Source of the DNA: Bilabrum cf. latius
Taxonomy: Eukaryota
Reading direction: 5' to 3'
DNA: 22,551 nucleotides
Assembly: GCA_965178125.1 (NCBI GenBank)
Contig: OZ237749.1
Coordinates: forward strand, 1,178,001-1,200,551
The notes under the pieces were generated by a model. It was not told the DNA's origin. It saw only the letters and a program-made list of their open reading frames with translations, and did not search any database. This document shows positions 1 to 20,839 of this stretch, piece by piece (the stretch's first letter is position 1; every line of letters begins with the position of its first letter). A program made the translations under genes and the position numbers.

Positions 1-2679
1 GCTCTGCGTCTAAGGGGTGTCCGGGAGCGGTACTTCCACATCGACGACGCCATGGGCCTCGACGCAGCCGGCAAGGCCTCGGGGGGGCGGGATGCGTCTG
101 CAGCAGCCGCAGGGGGTGGAGGCTTGCGGCCGGCAGGGTATGACACGAAGGATCCGGTGAGCTGCGTCACCGCCAGCAGGTAGTGCATGCTAGTGGGTCG
201 GGCATCAGGCGCGGTGTCAAGGTACACCCTGCCGCACCTGGTGCAGGATGCAGAGTACAGGCTGCGCAAGCCAGCAGCCAGGCTGGCTCTCAACTGCGAC
301 AGTACAGTGTTCAGTGTGGTGGACGACTCGGGCTTCCTGTCTTTCTTCGACACGAGGAGGCACCGGGTGGACCCGTCCACCGGACAGTCCGTGGAAGGCG
401 AGCAGCTCCCCGAGGAGCGCAAGGATGCGTGGGCCATGCGGTGGGCCGAGGACTCCCCGGAGCTGTTCGCGTCGATGGAGAAAACCAAGATGATTGTGTA
501 CAGGGACTGCAAGCCAGGTGACCCGGTGCTGTCCAGCGGCTACCTGGGGCGGTTCAGGGATCTCCGGGTGCAGGTGGCCATGCTGGACGACGTGATGGTG
601 GAGCCGGACCTGGCCAAGGTGAGTGACTGCGTGCTCTTCCACGAGACCAAGTCGCTCGAGGAGGCGTAGGTGCTCATCGAGTCAGCGTCGCCGCAGAAAG
701 CCGTGCAGTACATCCAGGAACATTCGCACCCCAGGCTGTGGCGGCTGCTGGCCGAGGGCGCCCTGGAGCGGCTCGATTTCGCGACTGCAGAGCAGGCCTT
801 TGTGGGCGGGCAAGACTATGCCGGGATCTAGCTCGTGAAGCGGTTGCGGCGGCTAGGTCATAACGCCAAGCAGAAGGCCGAGGTGCACGTGCACTTTGGC
901 AGGTTTCAGGACGCAGAGGACGCCTACCGCGGGATGGACAGGCTGGATCTCGCGATCGAGATGCGGGCCAGGGTGGGTGACTGGGCTCGAGCACTGCAGC
1001 TCGCATCGGAGGGAGAAGCAGACGGGGTGGATCGGATTGTGGCTGAGTGCAGGCGCCGCATAGGGGACCAGCTGATGGACCAGCAGCAGTGGACCAGGGC
1101 CGCGGAGGAGCTGGCCAAGACGGATGACAAAGCTGCGCTCATCAAGTGCTACCGCGCCATGGACGACTTTGACGCGCTGGCCGGCCTCGTGGAGGAACTC
1201 CCGGATGAGTCGCCGCTGCTGGTGGAGCTCGGGAGGGCGCTGCAGTCCGCGGGTGTGGCCCAGCCAGCCGTGGAGGCTCTGCTCAAGGCGGGCTAGCCGC
1301 AGGCAGCCGTGGACTGCTGCGTGCTGCTCAACGAATGGGACAAGGCCATCGAGCTGGCGCAGACGCATGACTTCCCGCAGGTGGAGTCTTTGCTCAACAA
1401 GTACGCCGCCCGGCTCCTGGCCAAGGGTCAGGTGATCGCCGCCATCGAGCTGTACCGCAAGGCTGGCAGACATGCAGAGGCTGCCCACTTGCTAGCCCAG
1501 CTCGCGGAGAGTTCCTTGGCTGCTCGCAAGTCCCCGCTCCGTGCGAAGAAGTTGTTCGTGCTGGCCGCACTGGAGGTGGAGAGCTTCCGGCAGCAGGCGG
1601 CGGACAAGGCCGTCGAGGATGCTACTGCTAAGGGCGGGGGCGCGGTCACTGCGGCAACCGCCACTGCCGCCATGACGGCCACCATGATGGACACCATGCT
1701 GCGGACTAATGCCACGCTCTCGGCGTCCACTGTCGGGGGCGAGCGAGCAGCGAAGCGGGCCGCGCGCACGCTGGACAACGCCTGGCACGGAGCCGAGGCT
1801 CTGCACTTCTGGATGCTTGGGCAGCGGTAGCTGTACGCGCGAGAGTTTGATGCGGCGATGGCGACTGCGGCAAGGCTTGCGGCACTGTACGAGGACGTGC
1901 TCCCTGCGAGGGACGTGCACAGCCTGCTGGCCCTCGCTGCCTTCAGAGCCGGTTTCTTCGGTCTTGCCTCCAGAGCATTCATCCGACTTGAAGCCGTGGC
2001 GGCCGGGGAGGACGAAGCCGCGGACGATGCGGGGGCTGGGGGGGGTGCGAAGGCAATTGGCGGTGCGGCTCACGTGAGCGGCGGCACCGGGGCGGGAGTG
2101 AGCCTGGCCACAGCCGCCACTACCATCATGGGGGGCGCGGAGACCGCCTCTGATCTGGCCGCCGCTCTGGGTGCCATCCCGCTGCCGAGGCCTGCGACTG
2201 CGGGGCTCGGGATGGCCGCGGGGCAGCTGCCCACCGAGGCTGCTCAGGCCATGGAGGCCGGTGGGTTCGGCGCAGGGGCGGCGGGCAAGGGCGGCGTCGG
2301 CTCTGCTGCTTCTCTTGCCCTCCAAGCGGAGCAAGCCAGGAGACAGAAACAAAGGGCCCGCGAGGAGTACGAGCAGCTGGCATTCCAGCTGTTCATGAGA
2401 CACCCCCCTCGCGACCCGCAGACCCGCATGCACCCTTGCCCGCACTGCAAGGAGGGGGTGCAGGGCTGGCAACCCAACTGCTCCTCGTGCGGGGCGCTCT
2501 TCTCGCCCAGCGTGGCATCTGGGCTGCCAATTAGGGGTTAGCCTTACTATCGGTGTGGGAGGTGTAAGCACAAGTGTCTGCTGCATGAAGTGGCTGGACT
2601 TGGGCTCAAGTCTTGCCCGCTCTGCCACGAGCCAATCGACACCGAGCAGGTCGAGCGAAGGTAGAGCCAGGGAACCTGA
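1..2679 (+). CDS. WDR35: IFT-A subunit IFT121/WDR35, 5'-truncated by the window edge (about 892 C-terminal aa; TAG=Gln)
   Basis: Frame +1 is continuous from base 1 to TGA 2677-2679 if TAGs at 181, 667, 829, 1294, 1828, 2539 and 2662 are sense. WDR35 motifs: PELFASMEKTKM, HPRLWRLLAE, AAVDCCVLLNEWDKAIELA, AIELYRKAGRH, LDNAWHGAEALHFWMLGQR*LY, and C-terminal Zn-finger pairs CPHC/CSSC and CGRCKH...CPLCH. Confidence 0.95.
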
Positions 2680-2780
2680 ATCCGCACAATACATATGGTG
2701 GCATCACCGTTCTGAGAAATTTCGTAAGCACTTGCTGGTGTGGCGTAACGCATGGTCAATGCCAAGCACAGGCTGTCCAA

Positions 2781-3255
2781 TCACTTCCCTCGAGCAGCGG
2801 CCGCAGCCTTCCCAGCTCGAGCCTTCTACATCTCGACAACTCTCTCCCCGATCTTATCCTTCTCGGACTTCTTAGCTTCGATACTGTCCTGCATCTGCTT
2901 GATTTGCCTTTCAATTAGGTCAAGACGTCTGCTGACATCCGATTTCCCTTCTTCAACGGGCTGCCGAACAAGCAGCGGGCCGGACAGCTTGAATATGGAC
3001 TCTCCCTCCGCCAACGCCTCAAACTCCTCCTTGACCATAGTGTTCTCATTTCTTCGTGCGTCGAGGTCAGTCATTTGCGAAATGCATTGCTAGATGTCTG
3101 CGATGTCACAGATGAACGTGAAATTACTTGTTACTATACTTGAAGCCCTGAGCTAACACGAATAGAACCAAGCCTAGATCCGTCTCACCAGCTTCAACCT
3201 TCCTATAGCTATTGATTACTTTCGCGAACTCTTCGTCTACGCCTCCTGCCATCAT
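2781..3255 (-). CDS. PFDN6: Prefoldin subunit 6 (beta type, Yke2/PFDN6), 127 aa, exons 3255-3189 and 3097-2781
   Basis: Contains NENTMVKEEF...IFKLSGPLLVRQPVEEGKSDVSRRLDLIE, typical of PFD6. A GT-AG intron joins MMAGG...KVEA to DI*QCISQ. In-frame TAG at 3092-3090 and 2828-2826; stop TGA at 2783-2781. Confidence 0.9.
3098..3188 (-). other. Spliceosomal intron (91 nt) in PFDN6
   Basis: GTGAGA donor and CGCAG acceptor; removal restores the frame. Confidence 0.85.
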
Positions 3256-3562: not shown

Positions 3563-5845
3563 ATGCGAACAGTAGCTTCTATTCTTATTGCAACAGTCAG
3601 TTGTCTGGCTGGGTGCAGTGCGTAGTTGTCGGTTCCGCTCAGTGCGTCAGCCGCCGAAGCTGCAACTGCTGCAGCAGTTGGTACATTCGAGGACCCAACC
3701 AGCAACTCCCATGCTCGATTTGCGGCAGCCAAAATCACCTCTATGAGTGAGCAACTCCCAGGCACCTCGGTGCAGTTCCCAAGCGCCAGCAAGGCACGAG
3801 CATGCAAGTCGCTGCAGTCCAGTCAAGGTAGTGATGCTGATATGGCCTTGTCATTCGCTGCGGCTGCTCATCTCGATTGTAAATGGGTATCGAAGCCTTC
3901 CGCTGGCGTAAAGAAGGCAGTCTCCGGTGCGCTTGCCTCAAAATCGGTCCCGTCCATCCTTGCGGCCCTGGAGGCCGCAAAGCACGCACCAAAGCTGCTG
4001 GATGGCAAGCTAGTGGGTGGTAGTAAGAAGGAAGCATCTGACCTCGTGCAGATGCTAATTGACAGCTTTGATGCGTCTGGCGAGTCTGCTTGGGCACCGT
4101 TCAGCTCGGATGACGCGCCTCGTAGCGCCGCCGTGACCTCGATGGCACTGCGCTCCTTGGCTCTAGTCGCTGAGCTGGCGTGTCCCAGCAGCGACGAGGG
4201 CGAGGAATGCCAGTCTATGAGGCAGTCAGTGGTGGAGGCCGGTGCACAAGCTAGTGTTCTGCTGGACAAGGCCGGTGTGGCCGGTCCTGGATCGAGCGGG
4301 GATGTCTCCCTCTCGTTGGAGGTCTCGGACTGGCTGCCCGAGAGGGAGGAGGCTCTCGGGGATGCGATGCTGACCAAACAGGCACGAGCGCAGGTGGAGG
4401 CGTTCTGGGCTACCCACGGCTCCCCAGCCCAGGCCACGGGCCAGCTGGCAAGCGCGCTGATGGACCTGCACGCAGTGACCAGAGCCGACCTTGAGGTGAC
4501 CGCTGACCAGCTGGCGGCCATGGCGCAGGCACTCGTCACACGGGCTCACGAAGCGGCCAGCACAGGAAACGTCGAGCAAGCAGCTGCAGCCCTGGATGGG
4601 CTGGTGGCGCTGTCTCGCCGCAACGTGGTGTCCGTCCCCGTGGCCCTGCAGGTGGTCCCCGCCAAGGGAGACCGCGTGGCTGTGCGGGCGTCCGACCCCC
4701 TGGGTGCGCCTCTGGCCGATGCCAAGGGGTGCGTACTGCGGGCACAGCTCGCCAGACAACTCAGCGGGCCGGAGGAGTCTGACGATCTCAAGATTGATCT
4801 GGAGTTCTCGCTGAGGAAGCCCAAGGCGGGTGCCAAGTCGCAGGACACCGTGTTCGTGGCCAAGGGGGTCTCCGCTGCTCTCTCCGCCCAGGGAGGCACC
4901 TTCGAGCTGGACCTCACTTTCGCCCCCCCGGACAGCCCATCACATGGGCCCCCGCTGCACTCGGTCGAGGCCACCTCCCGCGCCGTGCGGCTGCCCCTCA
5001 AGGCGGCTCTCAAGAACGGCGAGGTTCTCGTGAGCAGCTCGCCAAGGGCCAGCGATGACTCCGCCGTGGTCTCGCGCTCTGACATCGATGCCAAGGGTAG
5101 AGGCGCGGCCACTGTCACGGCGGGCTCGGCGCAGTACGTGCACGTGCTGTTCTCCGTGACGGCCTCGGGCGCCTCCATGCAGCCCCACCAGGCCCTCGTG
5201 CGTCTGACTCCGAGGTCAGGCCCCGGCTCAGCGGCGTTCTTCGTGGCACGGGTCGACTCTGGCGATGAGTCGGAGGGTGGATCGGTCACCATGCGGGCAA
5301 GCATCAACGTAGGCGACCGTCGCGAGCTTGGCGCGGCTGCCGATGGCGGCGCGTTCGATGCTGCCATCGTGATCGGAGACTCTCGCCTCAGCGTCGGCCT
5401 CGAGGTGCCAGTGGGCACGGTGGTGCTGGAGACCCCCTCCCCGCCCCCCGCCCAGGAGGAGATCCTCTACTCCAAGCCGCTGCTGCACGAGAGCGACACC
5501 GCCACGGCCCCTCTGCGGGAGATCGTGCACCAGTTCAATCCCCCGGAGAAACAGCCCCCGATTGTGGTGCCTCTGGCGGTGACGGGGGGCCTAGCTGCCG
5601 TGCTGGCGCTTTTCGTGACCACCGTGGGTGCCCTCAGCCACTCGTGGCGGTCTCCGGGGGCTGCCGGGCTGGGGCTGCTCGCAGTAGTGGGCTCCATGCT
5701 GGCAGTGCTGGGCCTGTACTTCTTCTAGGCTGGCCCTGTGGACAACGCTTTCACCGCGCTAGCCCTGCTGGGCATCCTGTCGGTGCCAGCGCTATTCGTT
5801 GGGAGGTCGGCTCTGGGCGCGCTCGCGGCGCAGGATGCCAAGTGA
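3563..5845 (+). CDS. RPN2: Oligosaccharyltransferase subunit ribophorin II (Swp1/RPN2), 760 aa
   Basis: Signal-peptide-like MRTVASILIATVSCLAGCSA, then TAG 3623. Contains the PHQALVRL motif and EIVHQFNPPEKQPP (RPN2 EIxHxFRxPEKRPP), followed by three hydrophobic segments. The third lies after TAG 5726. Stop TGA 5843-5845. Confidence 0.88.
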
Positions 5846-5987: not shown

Positions 5988-6739
5988 TCAATCCCCCATA
6001 AATATCCTACTCGCGATATCTCCCACCACCCAATCGACTCCTTCCACAAGCCCGTCTCCTGTGTATGCTGAGCACCCCTCGATACTCCAGTGCCTTCCTT
6101 CGTACACTGGGTGCGTTCCAAGTTCGAGAAGCTCAGCGATCTCCTTTGGCGGCAACGCACCTTTGATGTCCTGCTTGTTCGCGAACACTAGCAACGATGC
6201 GCCAGCCAACTTCTCCTGCTGCAGGAGACCGAATAGCTCTTTCTTGCAGTCCAGAAGCCGCTTCTTGTCGGCCGAATCAACTACCCAAACTACCCCGTCC
6301 GTAGACTCGAAATAATTCTTCCAGTATGACCTAATTGTCGTCTGACCGCCAACGTCCCATACATTCAACTTGTACCTGCAAAATTCAACGGGGCAGGCAG
6401 GTACCAAACCGCGCTAGCGGACAGAGTGCAGCACAGAGATTTCGAACGGTCATGAGACTTTCGGATGCCCTCACGACTTGTACTCTAACGTCTTGATATC
6501 AAATCCAAGCGTGGGTGAGATGGTACTGATATCTTCCCCATTAAATTTCCTGAGAACTGTAGATTTTCCAGCGTTGTCAAGTCCCCTGCGAACATTAAGA
6601 TTGCAAGTCGCACCGTTCAAAGGCATAGCATTCGTGACGTGATCCGAGTAGTTCGGACTATACCTCTGGCTCACAGGATGAGAATTCGCATCTCTTTTTC
6701 TTTCTACTTCAACTTCTTCAAGATTGTGAGCAGCCCCAT
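5988..6739 (-). CDS. ARL2: ARF-like GTPase ARL2, 187 aa, exons 6739-6675, 6585-6475 and 6375-5988
   Basis: [64 protein letters not shown] at codon 12 (6706-6704); stop TGA 5990-5988. Confidence 0.96.
6376..6474 (-). other. Spliceosomal intron 2 (99 nt) of ARL2
   Basis: GTGAGG...TGCAG; splicing gives LEYKSYKLNVWD. Confidence 0.9.
6586..6674 (-). other. Spliceosomal intron 1 (89 nt) of ARL2
   Basis: GTGAGC...CGCAG; splicing gives RILILGLDNAGK. Confidence 0.9.
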
Positions 6740-6860: not shown

Positions 6861-8110
6861 ATGGCAGCAACTAGTGGCGCGCTAGGAACTGGCAAGAAAT
6901 CTGCTTCAAAGGTCATTCCTTGGGTAGAGAAATAGTAAGGCGCCAGTTGACAGCACAGTGTGCTATGTTTCTTCTTGGATTCGTAGCTGCCGAACCGTCC
7001 AATTTCCGCTTCGCAGCCGCCCCAAGAAAGTTTCGGAGGTGTCCTTTCAGGATGAAGTTACAAAAGCTCTCGAAAATTCCATCCGAACCGGCGATGTAAG
7101 TACATGGCTGTTGGTGACAGTTTGCCTAGCCTCCAGCGCTACGCTGCACTTGTAGCTTGATCAAAACAGTGTCCTCGCAGTTGCCCCACTTGCTATTTTA
7201 CGGGCCCCCGGGAACAGGTAAAACGAGTGCAGCCAACGCTGTCGCAAGCGAATTGTTTGGGCCGGAGCTGATCAGAGCCAGGAAGCTAGAATTGAATGCG
7301 TCAGATGAGCGAGGAATCTCGGTCGTTCGCGAAAAGATCAAAGCGTTTGCGTCTGGATCAGTTGGATATGGTGCATCCACCTCGGCAGCACCGCGACGAA
7401 GAGTCCCGGCTTTCAAGCTCATCGTCTTGGATGAGGCGGACTCCCTCACCCCGGATGCTCAAGCAGCCTTGCGGCGAACGATGGAGACGTATTCTCACGT
7501 GACGCGGTTCTGCTTGATTTGCAATTATGTGAGCAGAATCATCGAGCCACTGACCAGCCGGTGTGCCAAGTTCCGATTCAAGCCCCTGGACGACGGGAGC
7601 ATGCGAGCGCGGCTCCGGCTCATCGCCGACGCCGAAGGGGTGGCGATGGACGCAGAGGCGGAGGGGGCGCTCCTCTCGTCGAGTGGGGGCGACTTGCGCC
7701 GGGCCATCGCCACCCTCCAGGGCACGGCTTAGATGCACGGCGTTGACGGCGTGTCCAAAGACAGGGTGCTGGCCATGAGCGGGAGACTGCCGGATGCCGT
7801 GTCGAGGCGGTTCTGGGAGGCGGCTCGCGGGGAGGACGTCGCTCGCGTGGTGGCGGTAGCCAAGGAACTGTCCAGCCTGGGCTTTGCTGCATCCGACGTT
7901 CTGGAGCGGCTGTTTGAGGACTCGATCGAGCTTGGCGCCAGCGCCAGCAGCAAGGCCAAGGCTCGCATTGCTAAGTGCCTGGCGGAGAGCCATAAGGCAT
8001 TGCTGGACGGGGCAGATGAGAGCCTGCAGCTGCTGCATGTGGCCATGTCGGTGCAGCGCGCCCTGCACGATTGGGTCATCCCGGATGAGTTCGCTATGCG
8101 GCAACTCTGA
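6861..8110 (+). CDS. RFC4: Replication factor C small subunit (human RFC4 / yeast Rfc2 type), 360 aa, exons 6861-6934, 7017-7095 and 7181-8110
   Basis: [96 protein letters not shown]. In-frame TAG 7730; stop TGA 8108-8110. Confidence 0.93.
6935..7016 (+). other. Spliceosomal intron 1 (82 nt) of RFC4
   Basis: GTAAGG...CGCAG; it splits the TAC codon of PWVEKYRP. Confidence 0.92.
7096..7180 (+). other. Spliceosomal intron 2 (85 nt) of RFC4
   Basis: GTAAGT...CGCAG; splicing gives [11 protein letters not shown]. Confidence 0.92.
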
Positions 8111-8221: not shown

Positions 8222-9034
8222 TCACAAACCCGCCTTCCGATTCTGCTCGCGCCTCCTCTCCGCCTCTTCCTTTCGCCGCTTCCGTTCCGCTCTCTTCTTC
8301 TTCCTCTCCACCTCGTCCTGCTTGCGCTTCTCTCGGAGCTCACGAGCCGCTACGTACGACTCTGCCGGGGGAGGCACCCATCCTTCTAATTTGCCCACCC
8401 TTACATACTTGCCCGAGTAGAACTCGACCTGCTCTTCCAGCTCGAGTGTTTCACGGGCCCCGAAATCGCTAAGGTCCGGATTCTCGACGTCATCCTTTTC
8501 TAAAGAACCAGTAGGGAGACTTTTACTGCCATCACGGCCTGCAAATATATGATACGGGGCATCAGGGCCGTAAAAGTGTGCACCCGCCGATACATCGAAC
8601 ACAATGCCGCCGCATGCTAGCAGGATCGGCTTAGTAGGATCCGTCCCGTCATACGCGCGCAACTCCTCCTTAGTGTACTATCGTTCACCGCTAATCTAGA
8701 TGACAAGAAATGACCACATCTGCTGCACCTGTATCCAGCCCATGCCAGCAACACTATCGTCAGGCATGTACGGGCACCCCGTGCGAGCAGTTGAGATCTC
8801 GTGAAAGTTGCCAGCTGGAATCAACAAGGTACTCAAACACCCAATAGACCCTACTATGGCCATGAGCACCCAAACAAAATATGGGAGCCCCTTTCGGCTA
8901 GATTTTGCCTTGCCATGAGGCGCACGCTCTGCTTCTTTCGATTCAACGCCTGTACTAGAGAGCATAGACCTACGTTCCCGCCTATTCCGCACATTACTGT
9001 TATTTTCATCACGTATGCCGGGTTCCGGCTGCAT
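8222..9034 (-). CDS. Membrane-anchored cytochrome b5-like heme/steroid-binding protein (MAPR family), about 270 aa
   Basis: Hydrophobic segment YFVWVLMAIVGSIGCLSTLLIP, then R*YTKEELRAYDGTDPTKPILLACGGIVFDVSAGAHFYGPDAPYHIFAGRDGS...YSGKYVRVGKL. TAGs at 8698-8696 and 8680-8678 link the TM part to the domain. Stop TGA 8224-8222. Confidence 0.88.
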
Positions 9035-9160
9035 CAATGGCGCAGCCTCTTGATTCGTTTCTGCTACACCTCCCGTGCCGTGACGTAGTGCGCTACAGTG
9101 CAGTGATTAGCCGCGATTTCCGTTGAGCCGGCACTTCTGCAGCGATTTAGCCAAGTTCAC

Positions 9161-10419
9161 ATGTCAAGTCGGCGCAAGTGAGTCTTTATTGTGTATGATG
9201 TAAATATATCTTTCTACAGACCCCGGATTATCCTCCTATACTCTATAATTGCCGGCGTAAATTCCGCCTTTATTGCAACCGCAGAGGCATGCCACATAGC
9301 ATCTTGGAGCAACGGGAGAAGGGTTTTGATTTGTCGGGATTATCCTCTGGCAAGTTGGACTACAACCCACTGTACGACTCCAACCTGAGACACTTCTTTG
9401 AGAGTGGTGGAGTGCAAAGGATTCTCAGGAGCACTGGCATGCTAGACTCAGACGGGCGAGTAATAGACATGGACAGGTTCAAAAGCAAGGTAAATATTAT
9501 TGAGCAAGAGTTCAGAACAGTTGAGGCGGAGGAAGAACAGCGTCGTAGGGAGGAAGAGGCGATGCGCAAGCGAGTTAGACAGAGACGCTACGAGGCTCTT
9601 GAAAGGGCTAGATAGCAGGAAAAACTGCAAAAAATGCGGTAGGATAGGAAGATTCGTGCTCAAATTCTCAGAGTAGCGCGGGGTATCGCCCCCGCTGGTC
9701 CCCCAGCTGGCGCAAAGAGAACATCAGGTCGATCAGTGCTTGCGCACAGCGCAAGCGCTGGCGTCCTAGGCAGCCGACCTGGCATGGGTGGGTCCCATGC
9801 TGCAGCCGCTGGCCTATATGGACAAGGTGGCGGCGCGAGGCGCAAAGTCAAGCGCAAAGGCAAGAAGAAGAGGGCTGCCGCGAGACAAGAAGCAGCCGGG
9901 TTTGCATCGAACTCCCCCCCCTTCGCTGCTGACGTCCATCGCACTCACGTGCCGGCAAGAGCTCCCGACGAGAGCAGGTTTCGCGATCCTATGGCACATG
10001 ATGAGTATGACCGTGGAGCTGTGGTAGAGCTTCCCAGGGAGGCTGGTGCGGCGGAAGAGCCGGCTAGCTCTGCCCCACTGGCACCACCACGCGCTACCTC
10101 TGAGCGGGCGGCGAGCCAGGCCTAGGCAGGAGGGGCTAGCTAGGCCTACTAGGCAGGAGGGGCGTACGACTATATTGATGTGCTCGCCCAAGAGGCCCGC
10201 AAAGACGCCGAGCGCATGGCGGAGTCTGCTAGAAGCCTTGGGGGCGGCACCGGCGGAGCCTCGGGGGCTGGGACGGCCAGATCTATGCGGTCTGCTGGGC
10301 TAGGTGACATTGCCGGTGCAGTTGCACCCGGCACAGCTGGGAGCGCAGACGTTGTCGTGACCGATGCAGACGGGTTTGCCATCCCTCCGGCCACAGATGC
10401 GGATGGCTTCAATTTGTGA
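9161..10419 (+). CDS. Uncharacterised protein with an ERICH3-N-like motif, coiled coil and low-complexity tail, about 383 aa, exons 9161-9177 and 9285-10419
   Basis: YNPLYDSNLRHFF...ILRSTGMLDSDGRVID resembles the YNSLxDxHLxxYF...L...G.I...GR motif I recall from ERICH3-type ciliary proteins. Frame is continuous over TAGs at 9613, 9640, 10123, 10141 and 10150; stop TGA 10417-10419. The first exon is inferred; ATG 9289 is an alternative start. Confidence 0.7.
9178..9284 (+). other. Predicted spliceosomal intron (107 nt)
   Basis: GTGAGT...CGCAG; joins MSSRRK to GMPHS in frame. Confidence 0.65.
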
Positions 10420-10476: not shown

Positions 10477-13400
10477 TCACCTCCGCTTGCCCCGCATCTC
10501 CTTGGAGCGGTGCCTCTTCATGCCCTCCTGGTGCTGCTTGCGGGATGCCTGCTTTTTCGCATGAGCACGCCGCAAACCTGCCTCATCCAGCGCCAGCCCG
10601 TTCCCCTGCTCCCGGCGACTGCCTGCCCCCTTCCCGGAGCCGCCCCTGCCTTGTCCACTAGCGCGCCCTGCACCGGCACTCGGCCGGCGCTGCGAAATAT
10701 CGCCAGCCCGTGCGGCTAGCGGGATGGCGCGGCTCCTGCCCTTGCCCTTCTGCCTCCAGTCCATCTTTGGAGCAGCACCAACAGCCGCGGCATCATCATC
10801 ACCATCCCCCCGGGCCCTGTTGGTCGCGTCCCCGATGCTCCGCTTGGTGTCCTTGGTCCACCGACGATACAGCTCGCCGTGCTCCTTACCATCCGACCGC
10901 ACCACGGCGCCGCTCTCTGTTCTCAATCGCTTGTCGCCTCGGCGGTCTGCTGCCTCCCCGTCTGTAAGTCTCACGTACTTGCGCTTGCGCTTGTCCCAGT
11001 GCAGTCGCTGCTACTGCGCCGCCATATCTTTCTGGTCATCAGCAACCACATCCACGACAGAGCTCTCCAGACGGGTGAAGCCCTCGATACCCGAAGCAGC
11101 CCCTCCCCTCGTTGCAGTCTCGCTGTTCGCCACCCTGTGCACCTGCATCGCGCTGGCCTCCCGGCGCTCCTCCGCGCTGGGGCCTTGCTGCACGAACAGA
11201 GCCGGGTCCCGGAATGCGCCAGTGGCCAGATCGATGTTGGAGGCGCCAACCCCGGCCTACTCCAAGTGCATGGCAGCCTCCAATGCAGCGCGCCGCCTAG
11301 CTGCTTTGGATCCTTTGCCGGCGCCGCGGTCAGCTCGCTTCATTGAACGCAGATGGACAGATGAGCGGCTTGCGCCCTTGCTTACCCGCGATGTTTCCCC
11401 AGCTGAGGAGCCGTTTTCATCGTCCGAGGCGCTACTGTCCTCCGACTCCGGACTCTTCTTCTTTGCAGCCGCCATCCTCTCCGCCGTCCTCTCTTTTTTC
11501 CTGGCAGCTGCGAGCGCCTCGCCCTTGCCCCACAAATCCTGCCGGGTCGTGTGCCTCCGCCGAGCAGCCTCCATGATTGCAGCCCCATGGTCTCGCTTCA
11601 CCTTGCTGCCGTCCGTCTCCAATATGGTCTGCTTGGGACGAAAGGCACGCAAAGACTCGATCGTCACTTGGTCCGCTCCTGCTGCAAGCCCTGCCGCAGA
11701 AGATGAGGAGGAGGAGGCTGGCTAGTCAGCATCCCCCCTACCGGACAGAATATCGTCCGCGACCGCCTGAGCAAGCCGACGAGCATGCGCACCGACAGCC
11801 TCGGCCTTGCCCCTCCGGCGGCCGCTGCTCTTGGACTTCACTGGGGCAGGTGCCGCCCCTTGCGCCAGAAGCAGAGGGTGCTCCGTGGCAAAAATGCGCC
11901 GCTCCAACCGCCGCACCTCGGCTGCTCCTCGCCGCGTTGCCTCCCTGCAAGCGCGCCTGTAGGCCTGCATGCCTCGTGCCGCTGTCTTGAGCTGGGACCG
12001 CATTGTATCGCTGTGCTTGAGGGCCTGTTCTTGTTCCTCCAGCAAAGCAGCGCGCACCGGTGCTGGCACCCCGCCCACATGCACGTCGAGCGGCGTCATC
12101 GTTGCAATATTGTACTGCAGCTGCCTCTAGCCACTGCCAGCTGTGTCAGCTGAGTCGGTCAACCGCGCCACGGACACATCCTCTGTTGCGGCACCCGAAC
12201 TAGCTACCTCTGCCTGCTCCGCTGGCTCTACTTCTTGGCTGCCCGGTAGTGGCAGCAAAATATCATCCAGGTCGTGCCCTAGAAAAGCGGCGCAATCGGC
12301 CAAGTACGGCGCGTCAGCCGGTGAGACGAACTATATGGCAGTTCCTGACCTGCCTTGTCTGGCGACTCGACCGCACCTGTGCACAAACAGCTTGGGCTGG
12401 TCCGGCATGTCGAACTGCACCACGTTGTCCAGCAGAGGGAGGTCGACGCCTCGGGCTGCCACGTCTGTTACAATCATCACACGAGCCTGCTTTCTCCGGA
12501 ACACCTCCATGTGCGCTCGTCGCGCGGCAGCATCCATCGAGCCAAAGATGGCGATGACACCGCCGGTGCCCGTGGAGGCAGTGCGCACGTCCTCTTCCTG
12601 CAGTGCGCGAGTCTCGCGGGCCGCGTCTGCAGCTGCGCGGTTGCGGTACTTTCCCGCCGCGCTGCCGCCAGGCTTGGCCCCTTTGGCAGCCCCTCCGGCC
12701 CCTGCACCCGAGCCGGCTGCCCGGACGCAGTCGTTCGGGACAGAGCAGGCCCGCAGGAACTGGAGGAGGAGCTCAGCCTGGTGCTTAGTAGCAACGAAAA
12801 CCATGGCCTGCTGGTCGGTAGGAATCACAGCACGCAGCACATACAGCAATAACCCCAACTTTGCATGAGTTTGCACTCCGAAGAAAGCGAGTCGGAGCTA
12901 GTCGCTGATCTTGGACTCGGCGTCGAGGCGAATCATAGCCGGGTCTCGGAGCCCAGCGCGAGCGAACTCTGCTACTCTGCGAGGCAGCGTCGCGGAGAAC
13001 AACAGCGTCTATCTGGCAGGCGACACCCTGGCCAGGATCTCCCGGAGCTGGTCGGCAAACCCCTGCTCAAACAGTCGGTCTGCTTCGTCGAACACGAGGT
13101 ACTCGACTGCGTTCAGGCTAAACTCATCCTTGGGAATTTCTGCCAATAAGTGCATAAGTCGGCCCGGGGTACTGACAACTAGATCGGGCGCAGTTGCCAA
13201 AGCTTCAAACTGAGCTGTCATGGAGTCTCCGCCTACCAGCAGGGCGCACCGGCAAGAAGCAAACCTACCCAGCTACAGAGCAAATTTCATCGTCTGTTGG
13301 GCAAGCTCCCTAGTTGGGGAAAGAACCAATACCCTAGGCCATTTCAAATTGCTTCCGCGTTGCTCAACTGACTTTCCTCCCTCGGTTGCCGCTGAGGACT

Positions 13401-13845
13401 TTTGCCGCAGCCCCTTGGTGCCAGCGAGAATACGCTGCAAGCCAGGCAACAAAAATGCAGCTGACTTGCCTGATCCAGTTCTTGCCATTGCTACGATATC
13501 CTTTCCAGATAACGAAATTGGAAGTGTTTGTGCCTAGATCTGCGTAGGCTCGTTGTACTTCAACTGCTTAATGCCTTTCAGCAGCAGAGAATCTAGCCCG
13601 AAACTCGACCATATCTCTTTTCTCTACCTCTTCTTAGCTTTTTTTGAGGTCTAGTCTGGGTTGCCTTCTTCTACTGGCACAGTTTGTACCTGTCCCGCTG
13701 GTTTGGAAAGCACGCTTGCGGCTGCCGAATTTGCCCTTGCACCTGACACCACCGCATTGCTCGTTGCTTTTGCAGTCAAAGATGATTGCGCCTGCTAGAG
13801 CTCTCTCTCGAAGTCTACTTCTGCGAGTCCCGCAGCCAGATCCAT
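10477..13845 (-). CDS. DDX54: DEAD-box RNA helicase DDX54/Dbp10, about 1122 aa, apparently intronless
   Basis: Q motif [81 protein letters not shown], and the Dbp10 C-terminus WDKRKRKYV...RTESG...GELYRRW. Twelve in-frame TAGs (plus-strand CTA at 13795, 13651, 13624, 13534, 13273, 13009, 12898, 12331, 12127, 11722, 11257, 11011); stop TGA 10479-10477. Confidence 0.95.
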
Positions 13846-14144: not shown

Positions 14145-16856
14145 TCAAGTCGGTGGAGACCACTTCCGCATTTCCTTTTGGACGGTCGCTGCGTACCGCT
14201 CCGGCGAGAAGCTTGTGCGTAGGTCAGGCAGCGGCGCTGGTGGCATGGCCGGTATGCCTTCCAAATGCTCGGCCTGTGCCTCTGACCTCTCGCGAACTCC
14301 ATGTGCAACGCCAAGAATAGATGCACCACTAGCTGGTCCTCTCGTAGCCACCAGCCGCCCGGTACTTGTCCCAATGCCTTCCAATGCAGGTGTACCTGCC
14401 AGTGCAGCTGCCGCTGCAACTCTCTCGTTGGACCGGGCCACTGCCTGCATCAAGTCGATCTCCACTGCTTTAAATCTACTTTGACTGCCCACTTCATAAT
14501 TACCGGCAGCTATAACTCCACCAACACTCTCTACGCCCACACGCGCACCTTGATGACGTGCGCCGCCACGCCTAATGTCCGCAGCCTGGACTGGTGCCAT
14601 GTCCGCAGAGGCCACACCCTGGACTGGTGCCATGTCCGCAGAGGCCACACCCTGGACTGGTGCCATGTCCGCAGAGGCCACACCCTGGACTGGTGCCATG
14701 TCCGCAGAGGCCACCTCCTGGACTGGTGCCATGTCCGCAGAGGCCACACTCTGGACTGGTGCCATGCCCGCAGAGGCCACACTCTGGACTGGTGCCATGT
14801 CCGCAGAGGCCACACCCTGGACTGGTGCCATGTCCGCAGAGGCCACCTCCTGGACCGGTGCCATGCCCGCAGAGGCCACACCCTGGACTGGTGCCATGTC
14901 CGCAGAGGCCACCTCATGGACTGGTGCCATGCCCGCAGAGGCCACCTCCTGGACTGGTGCCATGCCCGCAGAGGCCACACTCTGGACTGGTGCCATGTCC
15001 GCAGAGGCCACACTCTGGACTGGTGCCATGTCCGCAGAGGCCACACCCTGAACTGGTGCCATGCCCGCAGAGGCCGCACTCTGGACTGGTGCCATGTCCG
15101 CAGAGGCCACACCCTGGACTGGTGCCATGTCCGCAGAGGCCACACCCTGGACTGGTGCCATGTCCGCAGAGGCCACCTCTTGGACTGGTGCCATGTCCGC
15201 AGAGGCCACACCCTGGACTGGTGCCACGCCAACTGATTCAATTATTACTGGAGACCACTGAGTGCGCTGACGCAGATTCTAGCCTACTTTACTACTGAAT
15301 CGAGGCGTATGGTCCATTCCTCTCTCCGATTGCAGGTGCGTGTGCTGCACCGGAGGGGTGTGCTTCCAAGAGCTGCCAGAGCAGAAAGCTGGGGAGACAG
15401 TCTCTCGACCAGAGCCCAGCCGTGCGCGAGCATCATTCCCCTGCTAATCATGCAGTGGCCCAATAGAGTTGCCGACGACAACCCCCAGGCGAGCCAGTCG
15501 TCGACGCAACCGTGCCACCGTTATCTCAGGGTCCTCTACCTTAATCGCCTCCAATGTGGGGTACATGCTAGCGGATCCAACTCCAATCATGTTCTCTAGT
15601 TCCGGTGCAGCTTTGCTTGACGATGAATCTGAGGCACTACCCCGACCTGCCGTCAGGTACTACACAGTCTCAAGCGGCTATATATCTACAGGATGCATGC
15701 GGCGATCCTAGTCCAACCTTAATTGCTGCGCTAGTTGATCAGCAGGACTTGGTTGCAACGATGTGCATGCAGCAGATACGGCCGTCAGCCTCATGCTGGT
15801 TGCCGCCGGGGCAACACCCGTGTCCGTCCTACGCTTGGGTGTGCCTGTTTCGGAAAGCAGATGGCCACGAGTTGCGCCCGAATCTGTTTCTCGCATGGCG
15901 GAGAGATTTCTAGCATCACTATTGGTGGCCTTACCTCTCAGAGCCACATCAATAATGTCGTGCTTTGCGGTCATGCCTCCCACCGCTGTCGCAACCGCCG
16001 CATCACGAGGCTCACACATTCCAGGCAGGATTGACTACGGACTGTGCACCGGGCTGTGCATGCCACCCCTTTCTTCTTGAGATCCCACCCTATCTGGAAC
16101 ATAGGATTTGGTGGCTTCGTCATATCTGAACTTGGCTCTCGTTCTTCGCACTTCCGACCTGGATAGGGGCAGAGCTGGTACCACTGGGGTAGGATCCTAG
16201 CACCCACGCGAGCGAGCCGCTTCATCATCACAAACTATATCACCGTGACGACGGCTGTGTTGTACTTCAATTTCCGCATGGCTCTCCTGCTTGCCAGGAG
16301 GTCCACCCCCACATGATTCGGGCACTGCTGCTTCGGACTACCGTGTCAGCGCATCTGCTCCAACTATGGATGTGTGCGGCAATGAACTATCAGTTCGCAC
16401 TATCGATGCAAGGTCTCCAAGTAACTTTCGAGCTGTTCGAGGTGATGCCGACTGCAAGATGGCACCAAGAGCGTCGCCGCGGTCCCTGCTAAAGAATGAA
16501 GTTGCTGAATGGCTACTGCGCGCCGAATCCACGGAAGTTAATCCATCCACATAATCAATACGCGCGCGATCCTGTTGTCCAGAGCTTGATTCTATTTCAA
16601 GAGACGGTTTGCGGGACGATGCTGGCGGGGACGAAGATCGACGAGGGTAGCCCGGACTAGCATGAACCCTGCTGTCTTCCCCGACTCTGTCTTCACGCTT
16701 CGATGGTGGTGCCCTTCTGCGTGGGAAAGACTGTTTGAATCTGGGAATCGAGGTCCCACGCTATATGCCGCGACATGCACACCAATATTATTAGCACAAA
16801 AATCATCGAACTCACAAAAATCGCTATCTGTAGTACTCCAAATCAATTGACGCCAT
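14145..16856 (-). CDS. Orphan low-complexity protein with an 11-aa tandem repeat, about 878 aa, exons 16856-16816 and 16740-14145
   Basis: One minus-strand frame has no TAA/TGA from 16787 to TGA 14147-14145. The spliced model has 9 in-frame TAGs. The first exon MASIDLEYYR*RF is joined by a GTGAGT...CCCAG intron. No recognisable domain. Confidence 0.7.
14586..15227. repeat. Coding minisatellite, 33-bp unit, 19 full copies plus a partial, encoding MAPVQ(G/E/S)VASA(D/G) on the minus strand
   Basis: Head-to-tail copies of CTGGACTGGTGCCATGTCCGCAGAGGCCACACC with point variants and no indels. Confidence 0.97.
16741..16815 (-). other. Predicted spliceosomal intron (75 nt)
   Basis: GTGAGT donor and CCCAG acceptor in compatible phase; it supplies the ATG missing from the long frame. 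Confidence 0.6.
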
Positions 16857-17008
16857 GCTATGCTTTAGTCGACAAATTGTGTGGATATTATATCTATACG
16901 GTACCTCTCAATGACCTACTCGACGACCTTTCGTTTCGAATTGCATTATGAGGATCGAACCTTCGCTGGCCTGGCGGTGGATTCGGTTCATTTAATCACT
17001 GTGCTGCG

Positions 17009-20000
17009 ATGGCAACAACGTCTGGATTCGATCCAGCATTCGCTCATCTTGCTAAGATTGGTGCTGATCTCCGCGGTACATCGAGTCAATCAAGACCACG
17101 AGCAGATCAGCTAGGAACCGCGATATAGTGCTTACCAGCCTGTCTGCATCTTTTTGCGGTTGCCCTGCTTGACTAGACCCGCGCTGGTCCCAGTAAAGGT
17201 GCTTATCATATGGATATGATATGCCAGCAAGTTTCAGACTATGTCATTTCGGCTTTGCAAACGACAGACACACGCTGTCCAACGTGGTGCATAGATTGTT
17301 TTGGGAATTGCTCCACGCTTCTTCTCGCCGTTGACTAGGCCTGGAGGGACCCCAGCATACTTTCAGCTGTGCTATGCTTTCGGGTTGCCCAGAAGTTGGT
17401 TCGGACACCGGGCGTTGAAGTCGTCCATGTGGCGGAAGGTATCGCAGGAATAGCGTTGATGCGGACCCGCGACTTGATGCATGATATCGTTGATTTCAGT
17501 CCTGCATACTGTGATGGCACCAGTCATAAAAAGCGCCCAGAGTCTAGCAGGCGATAGTCGGACCTTGGTCCTTTGAGCGCAAAGATTGGACGGAGTAGCT
17601 TAGGCGAGCCCCTCGACCCCAGTCACCTGCCGGTGGCAGCCAGCCGAGGGCGATCGGTTCCACAGTCAACTGTGTCTGGCTTTCATGGAGCTAGTCCTAC
17701 CACAGGGATTCGAGTCCAGCGAGCACTTTCTGAGCCCCTGGAGACCTTCAGGCCTGAGCGCGTGGGTGCAGGAGCTCCCAGCAGTGGTCGCAGCTTCGAT
17801 CGAACGCAGCACCTATCCAGGGCGGCATCAAGAGAGGCAGCCGGAGGCACCATGCCGACATCTCGATCGAAGCTGGACAGGGTGTCAGACATGAGTAGTA
17901 CTGACTCCGCTGGCGTAGTTCACGCATGGGTCGCTCGATGCGGCTACGCGAGGGCCGCAGTGGCTCGAGTCTTAGTGTGCTTGGAACAAGCTGACCTGCC
18001 AGGTTCGTGGGTATCAAGGTGTGCGACAGCAGCGCGAAAGAGCTGGCCGAGACTGCCAGTGTGTGCCAACGCGCGGCTAGTGGCATGTGCAATTGCAGTA
18101 GCCAGCCCAGGTGTGCTGGATCTCTTGCATTGGCAGCAGACTGTTGCAGCAGAGACTCTGAGCCGCGCGCAGCGTGCTTCCCCAAGGTCTGGAATTCATG
18201 AGAGGGTTGCTCGACCTCTAGACCGAGCCCGGCCAATCCTTGGACTGCTGCAAGAATCTTCGAGATTCGTCGCTACACGATGCGACGCGGCTGAGGTTTC
18301 GTATTTGTGGGGATTGCGGCCGCCTGCCACTGTCAATAGCAAATCTAGCTCATATGGCGCAGCCACGGGAGCGGCTTCACCGGGACAAGGGCCTCTATAG
18401 AGCTTGTTTCGGCCATTGACCATCTCTCTAGCGTCCAGGCTTTTATTGGTAACGTCATCGGGTGAGGTTGAGAGCGTTGCTATCGCCCTTCTCGAAGGTG
18501 GAATCCTTGTGTTCGGCACGGAGCAGGGACACCGCGCCCCAAGCTAGCTGTGGACGCCTGCACCGCGCCCTACACTTGCATCTAAACTGAATAGGCGACC
18601 AGTTCAAACACATGGGGTTGGCACCGCATCAGATTCCTGGATCAAGAATGCAGATATAGCCGGGCGAGTCGCATTCAACTCATCGCTAGCAAGCATCTCG
18701 ATGCTAGACGGTCGTCCCGAAAACCCTGACAAAGATGGGTGGGCAGTCCACTTTCAAGCCGAGGACTGCCAAGCCATGGCTCTTGAGCCTTCAGCAAATC
18801 AGGGTTCGGCGAGGACATAGTTCAGTTCGTGGGGCATCATTGGTGGCAACAGCATAGGGCTCGTAGCGTGCTCAGCTCCAGAGAAAACGGCTGCGTTAGA
18901 GCTGTCAAAGCTTTTGCCTGATAGAGCCAGTACTCCCATCATATGCTAGGGTGTTGAGCGAAGCATGATTCTGCTGTGCCGTGGGCAAGCTGAGGCAAAC
19001 AGCTGGAGCCTGGCAATCAAAGCCGAAATGGTGGGAGCGTGTGCTGCTGGCACCAAGTTGCCTCTACCAGCTCCAATATTGGTGCCACGTGCTTTATGGC
19101 CTCTTCGGTCTGTGCTACTCCCCGGCATTGATAAAGTTTCGGCGTAGCGTGAGTCGGCTGTGGAACCAATGCCGCCGGCTGACGCAAACGTGTTCGCGTG
19201 CGATCTGTGCGGTCGGCTAGCGCCTGGACATGGAGCGCCACCCCACGTCCCTATGCTGCTAATTCCCGACCACACGACGAATGCCTGGCCATGCAGCTGC
19301 TGCACGCAGTGTTTAAGCAGGATGGCTCTGGAGGATGACTGTGACGAGGACGTCGGCGCTCGTGACTTCGGTGCCAGGCTAGTCCTGTTGCAGAATAGAG
19401 TTGGGAGCAACCATTGCCCCTCCCGGTGCCGATTCGCGGCCTCAATGGCCTTTGGGGTGTCGAGAGACTAGGCGACTGCGTGGCTTGATGAGGCTGAACG
19501 TACTGTGATTTCCAGTGGTGCACGCGGCTAGGCTGTTCCCTCGCCACCGGGCAACTCATTGGCTCGGGCGGTGCTGTACACTATATCGTGTGGGTTACGT
19601 GTACGATTAAAAAGCGATGCGACCGTGGTGGAGCTGCATAGGCCTGATTTAGCATCCACTGACAGCCCTGCAGACACCACGTCATCAGAGCCGCAAGGTC
19701 TATCCAGCTCCGATGAGGTTCATTGGAAGAAGTGGTTTATGCCAGGTCCTGACCGCCATGCGTTTCTTCAGGGCGAGCTACGACGAGGGGCGCGCCGTTA
19801 TTGTCTGCTGGAGGAAGCCCTGTGCCTGAGGCTTCGTGCAGTTCGTTTGGATCCTTCCGTGCAGATTAGCAAGCTTGCGCTGGAGCAGCTCAGTACTCTG
19901 TGGAGACGAACTGGTCTACTCCGTGGCGATTTTGAGGCTGCAGGGCCTGCGAGACCAGTTGCAGACGACGCCGCTCATCTCAAAATACCTGCCAGTGCCA

Positions 20001-20839
20001 ACACCCCGAATGGATAGCACAGCTCTGCATCTGCCCCACAATCGAACCACCTTCATGTGCTGCGTTGGCGGTACGATTCGTACAATCGTGTTACTCGCAA
20101 GCGCGTGTGTCTAGCACCGGGCACGAGGGTCCATGTGGTGGAGCCACATCGCACGGCAGCTCTAGTAGCACAAGGCAGGGTACCTGCGTGCCCGGACCCC
20201 ATGAGCATTGAGAGCTATGTCCTCGTTTCTGTCGCACAAATGCGCGGCGTCCATGCTGCCAGCAGCTATCATGCAGCACCAGCCAGTACTACAAGCTTGA
20301 CTATTGGCCTTCACGAAGTTAGGCCGCTGGGGCCTGGCAGGGTGGAAGTACGCGATGCTAGCATAACCGAAGAAAGCCCTTCTGGAGCAGGTTCGATGCT
20401 AGCAAATCCCAGCCTCGTACGACGGCAACAAGCAGGACACTCAGGTGGCGATGCTAAGCTTGTCGATGCAGAACTGGTTTGGGTACCTCTTGACTTTTTG
20501 CGATCCCAGGGATCCAGTCTCGCAGTTAGTCCTGCTGATCTATCAGGTCTCGGATGGGATGCCTCTGCCCAGTTTGCAGCCTATGAACAGTCTGGAGTTG
20601 CCACGTACACTGCCACGGATTGGGGCTAGGACGAAAGGGCGAGTAACACATCAACCCAGGCAGGGCGCAGCCTGGAAGTACCAATTCAGGAAGGCAAGTC
20701 AGCCACGACATTTGCATCGGCAACCCCAGTACCTAGCACAGATGAGGATGATTCAGAATCACCTGACCTGGACCACAAAGGAGATGCAGTCGACTTCGAC
20801 TTGGCTAGGGGGTCGGCAGCAGCGTTTGAATGGGATTGA
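17009..20839 (+). CDS. Large orphan protein, 1276 aa; possibly a highly diverged DH-PH-Zn-finger-SH3 (RhoGEF-like) protein
   Basis: Frame +2 runs from ATG 17009 to TGA 20837-20839, interrupted only by 13 TAGs (17126, 17174, 17336, 17555, 18398, 18545, 18818, 18947, 19145, 19469, 19529, 20015, 20627). Six ORF-track fragments share this frame. Domain resemblance is weak and judged by eye. Confidence 0.75.

Follow-up and report, generated by a model that had tools for sequence, protein, structure and literature searches.

A nuclear code in which UAG alone is reassigned to glutamine and all observed genes end in UGA, from a chromosome end of a putatively Cafeteria-related eukaryote

Introduction

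In the parts of the literature available to us, nuclear reassignments of UAG alone are confined to Iotanema, one rhizarian, Scotinosphaera and a handful of ciliates. In Iotanema spirale (Fornicata), UAG encodes glutamine while UAA and UGA are stops, with UAA predominant (PMC5304391, available text). The ciliates Hartmannula sinica, Trochilia petrani and Protocruzia tuzeti are likewise described as having reassigned only UAG to glutamine, with UAA as the preferred stop (PMC11687900, available text). The same two sources, as far as their available text goes, describe the rhizarian exLh, in which UAG is read as leucine and genes terminate in 56 UAA and 15 UGA, and Scotinosphaera, in which UAG is read as serine (PMC5304391, PMC11687900). 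Outside nuclear genomes, crAss-like phages with genetic code 15 read TAG as glutamine (PMC9523058, available text).

The more familiar table 6 codes, in which UAA and UAG both encode glutamine, occur in Tetrahymena and other ciliates, Hexamita, ulvophycean algae, Streblomastix and Amoeboaphelidium (PMC11687900, available text). An earlier, sequence-only reading of the locus described here took as its background that UAA and UAG usually change together, which matches the available text of PMC11687900, where a UUA anticodon is said to wobble onto both codons. A CUA anticodon would decode UAG alone (PMC11687900, available text).

Here we analyze one stretch of DNA of 22,551 nucleotides (the window) together with a syntenic locus from a diverged relative. 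The explanation that we consider likely is a nuclear code in which UAG alone has been reassigned to glutamine, with a tRNA-Gln(CUA) and an altered eRF1 as the putative agents and with termination centred on UGA favoured. On that explanation, a flagellated, Cafeteria-related eukaryote is the source, and the window covers one of its nuclear chromosomes at the telomeric end. The change is of a rare, already known kind; the lineage is new.

Results

Gene content of the window

The window carries ten genes followed by a subtelomeric repeat and a telomere. Seven introns were first predicted from sequence and later checked against transcript contigs. The features are as follows.

1..2679, plus strand: IFT121/WDR35, truncated at its 5' end by the edge of the window; 7 TAG, 0 TAA; stop TGA 2677-2679
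2781..3255, minus strand: beta-type prefoldin subunit, exons 3255..3189 and 3097..2781; 2 TAG; stop TGA 2781-2783
3563..5845, plus strand: ribophorin II; 2 TAG; stop TGA 5843-5845
5988..6739, minus strand: ARL2 small GTPase, exons 6739..6675, 6585..6475 and 6375..5988; 1 TAG; stop TGA 5988-5990
6861..8110, plus strand: replication factor C small subunit, exons 6861..6934, 7017..7095 and 7181..8110; 1 TAG; stop TGA 8108-8110
8222..9037, minus strand: cytochrome b5-domain (MAPR-like) protein; 2 TAG; stop TGA 8222-8224
9161..10419, plus strand: UNK7, conserved gene, exons 9161..9177 and 9285..10419; 5 TAG; stop TGA 10417-10419
10477..13845, minus strand: DBP10/DDX54 DEAD-box helicase; 12 TAG; stop TGA 10477-10479
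14145..16856, minus strand: UNK9, exons 16856..16816 and 16716..14145; 9 TAG; stop TGA 14145-14147
17009..20839, plus strand: UNK10, 1,276 aa; 13 TAG; stop TGA 20837-20839
20917..21906, no strand: subtelomeric repeat, a 63-bp unit in 15.7 tandem copies with 98% matches by Tandem Repeats Finder
21907..22551, plus strand: telomere, (TTAGGG) x 107.5, reaching the window's last base

Pfam domains identified seven of these genes: WDR35/IFT121 domains (E = 1e-54 to 1e-10), Prefoldin_2 (E = 2.9e-13), the third and C-terminal domains of ribophorin II (the latter aligned to residue 757 of 760), Arf in ARL2 (E = 2e-42), AAA and Rep_fac_C in the replication factor C gene, Cyt-b5 (E = 7e-8), and DEAD, Helicase_C and DBP10CT in DBP10. 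UNK7, UNK9 and UNK10 had no Pfam match. UNK7 has an orthologue in the relative, UNK9 contains an in-frame repeat (33 nt x 19.5, at 14585-15226), and UNK10 is a single frame, open only with TAG as sense.

Each of the seven introns corresponds to an exact GT..AG skip in contigs of sequencing runs X6, X7 or X8, and not in X1. The 91-nt prefoldin intron (3098-3188) and both ARL2 introns are skipped in all three of these runs, the replication factor C introns in X6 (the second also in X8), the 107-nt UNK7 intron in X6 and X7, and the 99-nt UNK9 intron in X6. The automatic run labels are 'probably DNA' for X6 and 'RNA?' for X7 and X8; the seven intron skips lead us to call all three transcript-derived. 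At ~14.3-17.0 kb, X7 and X8 offer little or no contig cover, and those parts were left uninterpreted. Transcript contigs also span 10452-13863 (DBP10) and 17016-20870 (UNK10) and reach 2696 at the end of IFT121, and unspliced ones cover the cytochrome b5-domain gene. An apparent in-frame 'TAG TAA' at 6933-6938, in the replication factor C gene, proved to be the 5' splice site TA/GTAAGG.

The stretch at 5900-15800 was matched in sequencing runs of nine studies. The same DNA appears in runs under at least four different organism labels, and it may therefore be mis-annotated or mis-attributed in public data. X6 and X8 share a joint from 12220 to 7934 with 27 inserted letters. A 44-base unit of the subtelomeric repeat had no exact match in the metagenome, genome or viral contig collections.

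In-frame UAG and the absence of UAA

Over 6,258 codons, the ten gene models contain 54 in-frame TAG, no TAA and ten TGA, every one of the latter terminal (2677, 2781, 5843, 5988, 8108, 8222, 10417, 10477, 14145 and 20837). The sequence-only reading had arrived at the same 54 and zero and the same ten end coordinates, all of which were recovered exactly with the transcript-supported models. This count is not circular: when table 6, in which TGA alone stops translation, is applied, the long frames keep their 3' ends and, where comparable (both lists begin at ATG), their starts; only the ribophorin frame extends upstream of its ATG.

The window is GC-rich (50-66% GC per kb), but GC bias fails to explain the missing TAA, because A-ending alternatives are common in the same sequences. 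CAA is in use for glutamine, as had been claimed before, with 64 CAA against 164 CAG, or 28% of CAR; read in their two off-frames, these coding sequences show 54 TAA against 142 TAG, which is likewise ~28% of TAR. The probability of no TAA among 54 is 1.9e-8 at the A-share of CAA and 2.8e-8 at the off-frame share. TAA is also found 44 times within the 2,072 non-coding positions of the window, both strands counted.

The same code in a second species

A metagenome contig syntenic with the window (L001) comes from a less GC-rich relative (54% GC; GC3 0.5-0.6). It repeats the window's pattern in stronger form: among 2,693 codons it has 36 in-frame TAG and no TAA, and all six of its gene termini are TGA. 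CAA makes up 37.5% of its CAR codons, GAA has a share of 42% and AAA one of 37%; at the A-share of CAA the probability of no TAA is ~4e-8 (0.625^36). Between the window and L001, synonymous sites have diverged heavily, with 55-60% of the codons for identical residues differing; the same code change as in the window is present in this diverged second species. UAG accounts for ~19% of glutamine codons in the window and 31% in the relative.

A further contig, L002, duplicates a part of L001 at 100% identity and thus contributes nothing independent; L003-L005, which carry distant IFT121 loci (32-40% identity), were left out. Searches limited to longer sequences also gave a distant homologue match, to Scenedesmus at 37%. 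With DBP10 as the query, no relative was found in the genome or viral contig collections.

UAG stands at conserved glutamine positions

Residues 104 and 279 of DBP10 are encoded by TAG, and glutamine occupies both columns in 120 of 120 homologues; of the twelve DBP10 TAG columns, six have another majority residue and four are mostly gaps in homologues. Three IFT121 TAG columns have glutamine in 33, 37 and 40 of 44 homologues, and two others in the window have arginine (40/44) and aspartate (32/44). Overall, glutamine is the commonest residue at IFT121 TAG columns (31-33%), above its frequency at CAR columns (11-19%). In the relative's ARL2, TAG lies in the WDVGGQ motif, at the catalytic glutamine, and in FANKQD, opposite the glutamines of solved ARL2. 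A reading of TAG as some other amino acid is rejected by these DBP10, IFT121 and ARL2 columns.

Alignment of the two species leads to the same assignment. Of the 17 window TAGs in the alignment, 14 stand opposite CAG, CAA or TAG in L001; of the 35 L001 TAGs, 27 stand opposite one of these three codons in the window, mainly exchanging with CAG and CAA. TAG exchanges with CAG or CAA at 31 aligned positions, and neither coding set contains an in-frame TAA. UAG is thus a sense codon for glutamine, and UAA is not a sense codon.

Terminators and the role of UAA

UGA terminates 16 of 16 genes (ten in the window, six in L001), and UAA and UAG none. These termini are real: C-terminal homology supports them, the relative's ARL2 matching solved ARL2 chains to the last residue, and transcript ends lie close to TGA, with a poly(A) loose end 33 nt after that of UNK7 (after 10452) and two other contigs ending 17-31 nt after theirs. 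Ten TGA out of ten in the window has a probability of 0.007 if TAA were used at the A/(A+G) proportion of four-fold sites (0.39), and of 0.11 at a TAA share of 20%; taken alone, this is weaker evidence than the missing in-frame TAA. For no TAA among all 16 termini, the probability is 1.4e-4 at the A share of four-fold sites (0.39 for the window and 0.48 for L001), 0.003 at a TAA share of 30%, 0.028 at 20% and 0.19 at 10%, the 16 being not fully independent as the six L001 termini belong to orthologues of six of the ten window genes. Rather than a normal second stop at UAA, they favour a release factor that recognizes essentially UGA, UAA being scarcely used or unassigned. The sequence-only reading held that the window alone could not settle the status of UAA; the six further termini tilt the case towards 'hardly used as a stop', without proving it.

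Phylogenetic placement

IFT121 trees (46 rows, MAFFT alignment) put the window and L001 together as sister to Cafeteria, with an SH-like support of 100 in FastTree and an SH-aLRT of 100 in IQ-TREE under LG+C20. The DBP10 tree recovers the window, with support of 99, as sister to a clade that contains Cafeteria. Both are single-gene trees, and the window and L001 rows were flagged for deviant composition. Together, they would place the organism beside Cafeteria, a stramenopile (Bicosoecida-like). The literature searched yielded no account of a changed nuclear code in a stramenopile or bicosoecid, most subscription journals being outside the reach of that search.

Discussion

Alternative readings of the code

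At the level of the code, the sequence-only interpretation stands: UAG encodes glutamine, UAA is not sense and UGA is the sole stop seen (10/10 in the window, 6/6 in the relative). Its proposed agents are plausible. UAG would be read by a tRNA-Gln whose CUA anticodon is unable to wobble onto UAA, and eRF1 would have lost recognition of UAG. An ARAGORN scan of the window and L001-L005, ~51 kb in all, detected no tRNA genes, a length of sequence too small to be informative.

The strongest competitor is an ordinary UAG-only code of the NCBI table 15 type, such as that of Iotanema, in which UAA is a working stop that went unsampled since a GC-rich genome prefers UGA. The prior favours it, because every nuclear UAG-only code described in the available text of PMC5304391 and PMC11687900 keeps UAA as its main stop. 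Moreover, a stop codon predicts exactly zero in-frame TAA, and zero of 16 termini is not extreme if TAA use is 10% or less. Against this, UAA is the preferred rather than a rare stop in those described cases, and the zero includes six termini from a relative with a GC3 of 0.5-0.6 and A at 48% of A+G at four-fold sites. We regard this reading as a possibility that falls short of being probable.

We give the same weight to the possibility that UAA is functionally vacant, the organism having a UGA-only release factor like that of table 6 organisms and tRNA-Gln(CUA) as its sole suppressor tRNA. If so, UAA would be neither read nor released and would be purged from reading frames and gene ends alike, leaving a nuclear code in which 62 codons are sense, one is a stop and one is vacant. 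Such a code would be a living intermediate between the standard code and table 6, with UAG captured first. No such state was found described in the available text of the literature consulted on stop codon reassignments.

A table 6 code in which TAA is avoided solely through GC-biased codon usage had been named beforehand as the rival that could overturn the sequence-only reading. It fits UGA as the sole stop seen and the GC-rich window, but the relative, with 36 TAG and no TAA, tells against it. Pooling both species (0 TAA against 90 TAG in 8,951 codons) bounds the TAA share of TAR at ≤3.3% (95% upper bound), far from the CAA shares of 28% and 37.5% and from the GAA and AAA shares of L001, and neither coding set has an in-frame TAA to pair with any codon, whereas TAG exchanges with CAG or CAA at the 31 positions noted above. 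This reading is rejected as very improbable.

Equally improbable is a context-dependent UAG of the Condylostoma type, read as glutamine within genes and as a stop near the mRNA end. The 3' UTRs are very short (~17-33 nt), a feature on which such codes rely, and TAG directly follows TGA in the window's ARL2 and in the CYB5 gene of L001. However, none of the 16 genes requires TAG as a terminator, all having TGA at a conserved C-terminus, and ribophorin II of L001 has TAG as its last sense codon, adjoining TGA.

In-frame stops are often artefacts, but nothing was found here in favour of that view. That the in-frame TAGs are not decoded as such, but reflect pseudogenes, sequencing error, editing to CAG or programmed readthrough, is scarcely credible, given that only two base differences, neither at a TAG, separate the window from four runs over the 20 kb compared, that the listed pieces of spliced contigs take in 44 of the 54 TAG codons and retain them (which argues against RNA editing), that the genes are conserved and recur, syntenic and intact, in a diverged relative, and that TAGs occupy catalytic and invariant glutamine positions.

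Significance

The preferred reading, UAG alone reassigned to glutamine, adds a stramenopile-placed lineage to the nuclear cases, and with it a second, diverged species that has the same change. With UGA at all 16 termini, where the other cases prefer UAA, the steps by which table 6 codes evolved become testable in one organism, namely whether UAG was captured first with UAA vacated or retained. On the practical side, standard-code gene callers fragment these genes; within the DBP10 gene of 1,122 residues, table 11 ORFs on the coding strand reach 181 aa at most.

Comparison with known codes

As in Iotanema, UAG alone has gone to glutamine, in-frame UAA is absent and the organism is a non-ciliate flagellate. 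It differs from Iotanema, so far as the available text describes that code, in that none of 16 termini is UAA and all are UGA, and in its lineage, which the stramenopile placement would make unrelated. With the UAG-only ciliates, as described in the available text, it shares UAG as glutamine in wide sense use and the absence of UAA as a sense codon. The window organism is not a ciliate, having a TTAGGG telomere and a different tree position. Like table 6 organisms it has UAG as glutamine and UGA as the sole terminator seen (16/16, a small sample), but unlike them it uses UAA as sense in 0 of 8,951 codons. In exLh and Scotinosphaera, according to the available text, UAA and UAG are decoupled as here; the amino acid differs, and exLh retains UAA as its dominant stop. 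The crAss-like phages, in the text available, are viral, with a bacterial host and two release factors, whereas the present code is that of a nuclear chromosome of a eukaryote, which has introns and a telomere. The ambiguous stop/sense usage of the Condylostoma and Blastocrithidia type, where the reassigned codon also ends genes, is absent, as 0 of 16 genes end at TAG. It is thus the terminators, UGA in 16 of 16 genes against a preference for UAA, that set this lineage apart from all the UAG-only cases described in the available literature.

Results

The window is the terminal part of a eukaryotic nuclear chromosome, with a GC content of 50-66% (per kb). Ten genes take up 18,774 of its 20,880 leading bases; the last gene ends at 20839, and a subtelomeric repeat begins 77 nt beyond, leading straight into the telomere:

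20917-21906: tandem repeat, 63 bp x 15.7 copies, directly before the telomere
Up to the final base of the window: TTAGGG x 107.5

Spurious long ORFs occur in several frames of the 63-bp repeat because its period is a multiple of three. Pfam searches identified seven of the ten genes, i.e., IFT121/WDR35, a prefoldin beta-type subunit, ribophorin II, an ARL2-type GTPase, a replication factor C (RFC) small subunit, a cytochrome b5-domain protein, and a DBP10/DDX54 helicase, and gave no match for the other three (UNK7, UNK9, and UNK10). UNK9, on the minus strand, contains a 33-nt unit repeated 19.5 times in frame at 14585-15226 (93% matches), so that its protein carries an 11-residue repeat. The presence of an IFT gene implies that the organism makes a cilium or flagellum. 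Under translation table 11 the genes break into fragments; with TAG as a sense codon, uninterrupted frames open, the longest of 1,276 codons.

Seven GT..AG introns of 82-107 nt were predicted from sequence and protein homology, and contigs from four public sequencing runs (X1, X6, X7, and X8) were placed on window positions 1000-20999. Contigs of X6, X7, or X8 skip each of the seven introns exactly, and those of X1 skip none; X6, X7, and X8 were therefore treated as transcript-derived, the run kind being software-guessed and X6 being labelled 'probably DNA'. What looks like an in-frame 'TAG TAA' within RFC is a 5' splice site. Transcript contigs end 17 nt past the IFT121 stop and 31 nt past the UNK10 stop, and a loose poly(A) end follows 10452, 33 nt beyond the UNK7 stop; 3' UTRs are about 17-33 nt long. 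Four convergent gene pairs have 57-142 nt between their stops (2679-2781, 5845-5988, 8110-8222, and 10419-10477). Transcript contigs of convergent partners abut or overlap, those of UNK7 and DBP10 both extending to 10452, and single contigs cover ribophorin II plus ARL2 and RFC plus the cytochrome b5 gene. Contigs of X6 and X8 also connect 12220 to 7934 with an identical 27 additional letters in between; this join could reflect mis-assembly over low-complexity, GC-rich coding sequence, or else a genuine copy that is rearranged or paralogous.

The ten genes comprise 6,258 codons, among them 54 TAG, no TAA, and ten TGA, each of them terminal. The intron-corrected models thus reproduce the in-frame counts, and the very stop coordinates, claimed in the sequence-only reading. 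The count is not circular, because a TGA-only reading keeps the 3' ends of the long frames and comparable ATG starts, the ribophorin frame excepted. TAA is available elsewhere: the two off-frames of the coding sequences contain 54 TAA vs 142 TAG, and the 2,072 non-coding positions contain 44 TAA over the two strands together. The in-frame CAA:CAG ratio is 64:164. The probability of finding no TAA among 54 codons is 1.9e-8 at CAA's share and 2.8e-8 at the off-frame share.

Four agreeing lines of evidence (DBP10, IFT121, residue enrichment, and transcripts) establish that UAG is glutamine. In DBP10, two of the 12 TAG codons lie in the Q-motif and the RQTLLFSAT block, where all 120 homologues among the matches listed have Q; at the ten remaining TAG columns, the majority residue is not Q in six, and gaps predominate in four. 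In IFT121, two window TAG columns have Q in 33 and 40 of 44 homologues, and two others have R in 40/44 and D in 32/44. When the TAG columns of IFT121 are pooled, Q outnumbers every other residue, with a share of 31-33% vs 11-19% at the organism's own CAA/CAG columns. Finally, 44 of the 54 TAG codons are within the listed pieces of spliced contigs, and the only base differences reported over the 20 kb compared (9485 G>T and 15411 A>G) fall outside TAG codons. RNA editing and sequencing error are ruled out because spliced contigs retain the TAGs and differ at none of them.

Scanning metagenome contigs with IFT121 recovered one contig in full length (L001; 9,849 bp) and a second contig (L002), which matches a stretch of L001 at 100% identity and is therefore not independent. 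L001 shares synteny with the window across IFT121, prefoldin, ribophorin II, ARL2, RFC, cytochrome b5, and UNK7. Protein identity is 55-96% and codons differ at 55-60% of identical residues, so that L001 represents a well-diverged relative. Its sequence occurs in two separate metagenome records (100% identity across 3,317 bases), and the relative is therefore a recurrent environmental organism. The 2,693 codons of L001 include 36 TAG and no TAA (CAA:CAG 30:50), and all six complete genes end in TGA. In its ARL2, TAG occupies the catalytic Gln of WDVGGQ and also occurs in FANKQD, both aligned to Q of solved ARL2 structures, and the alignment extends to the final residue of the solved chain. Fourteen of 17 aligned window TAGs are opposite CAG (6), TAG (5), or CAA (3) in L001; conversely, 27 of 35 aligned L001 TAGs are opposite CAG (16), CAA (6), or TAG (5).

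L001 also bears on the rival named in the sequence-only reading, namely ordinary table 6 (UAA and UAG both Gln, UGA sole stop) with TAA avoided through GC-driven bias. L001 is less GC-rich than the window (54% GC, GC3 0.5-0.6), and under this weaker GC pressure the TAG share of Gln codons goes up to 31% and TAA stays at zero. Table 6 with GC-driven TAA avoidance is thus rejected; the 95% upper bound on the TAA share among the 90 TAR codons of window and L001 is 3.3%.

TAG adjoins the terminal TGA in three of 16 genes, a small sample in which chance is possible. It follows TGA in window ARL2 and L001 CYB5 (the cytochrome b5-domain gene), and in L001 ribophorin II it is the final sense codon, right before TGA:

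Window 5985-5990: TAG beside TGA
L001 5660-5665: TAG beside TGA
L001 8236-8241: TAG beside TGA

Because the lack of in-frame TAA suits both UAA as a stop and UAA as an unassigned codon, only gene ends can discriminate between them. TAA is at none of the 16 termini (ten in the window, six in L001). At the A/(A+G) share of four-fold sites (window 0.39, L001 0.48) the probability of this is 1.4e-4, and at TAA shares of 30, 20, and 10% it is 0.003, 0.028, and 0.19, the termini being not fully independent because the six from L001 are orthologous to window genes. In GC-rich eukaryotes with the standard code, TAA usually still ends at least 20% of genes. The sequence-only reading had left UAA as either a rare stop or nearly unused; we conclude that it is a little-used stop at most. 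We lean towards a release system that would work essentially on UGA, the vacancy of UAA being beyond the reach of 16 termini.

A close relative was sought in a 5.8-billion-protein collection and none was found; the best protein matches were 47-48% (IFT121) and 42-54% (DBP10) identical. IFT121 trees placed the window and L001 as sister to Cafeteria, inside a cluster also containing Platysulcus and oomycetes (FastTree, 46 rows, SH-like support 100; IQ-TREE LG+C20, 27 rows picked from the 46, SH-aLRT 100). With DBP10, a tree built on 37 rows picked from the 120 matches listed placed the window as sister to a Cafeteria-containing clade (support 99). The organism would thus be a Cafeteria-related stramenopile, which is a working placement because the trees are single-gene and the window, L001, and Cafeteria were flagged for deviant amino-acid composition. 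An IFT121 member of cluster P0123 is labelled Symbiodinium sp. KB8, yet the cluster lies in the stramenopile part of the IFT121 trees, far from the dinoflagellate rows; this record may be contaminated.

Window positions 5900-15800 are present in at least 14 runs from nine studies, under several coded organism labels. Runs X1-X8, with four labels (A-D) and from four studies, contain 52-97% of the sampled words of this region, and 99 of 107 contigs of X1, X6, X7, and X8 are at least 99% alike to window 1000-20999. This suggests that the organism accompanies other samples or cultures, or that the runs are labelled inconsistently.

Discussion

Two diverged species share a code in which UAG is read as Gln, UAA is kept out of frames, and UGA terminates. 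By the accepted decoding logic, a UUA anticodon reads UAA and UAG, and a CUA anticodon reads UAG only (PMC11687900, PMC5304391). From established decoding knowledge, UAG would be read by a tRNA-Gln(CUA) that probably arose from tRNA-Gln(CUG) through a single anticodon change, and eRF1 would have ceased to compete at UAG.

A literature search for nuclear code changes in stramenopiles or bicosoecids found no report, its coverage being incomplete and no proof of absence. Among the cases described in PMC11687900 and PMC5304391, UAG alone is reassigned to Gln in Iotanema spirale, Protocruzia tuzeti, Hartmannula sinica, and Trochilia petrani, to Leu in a rhizarian and some ciliates, and to Ser in Scotinosphaera. 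The present code is the same kind of change. The UAG-only cases described there keep UAA as a stop, and as the preferred one; the present code, from another lineage, differs in having UGA at every gene end seen (16/16 over window and L001).
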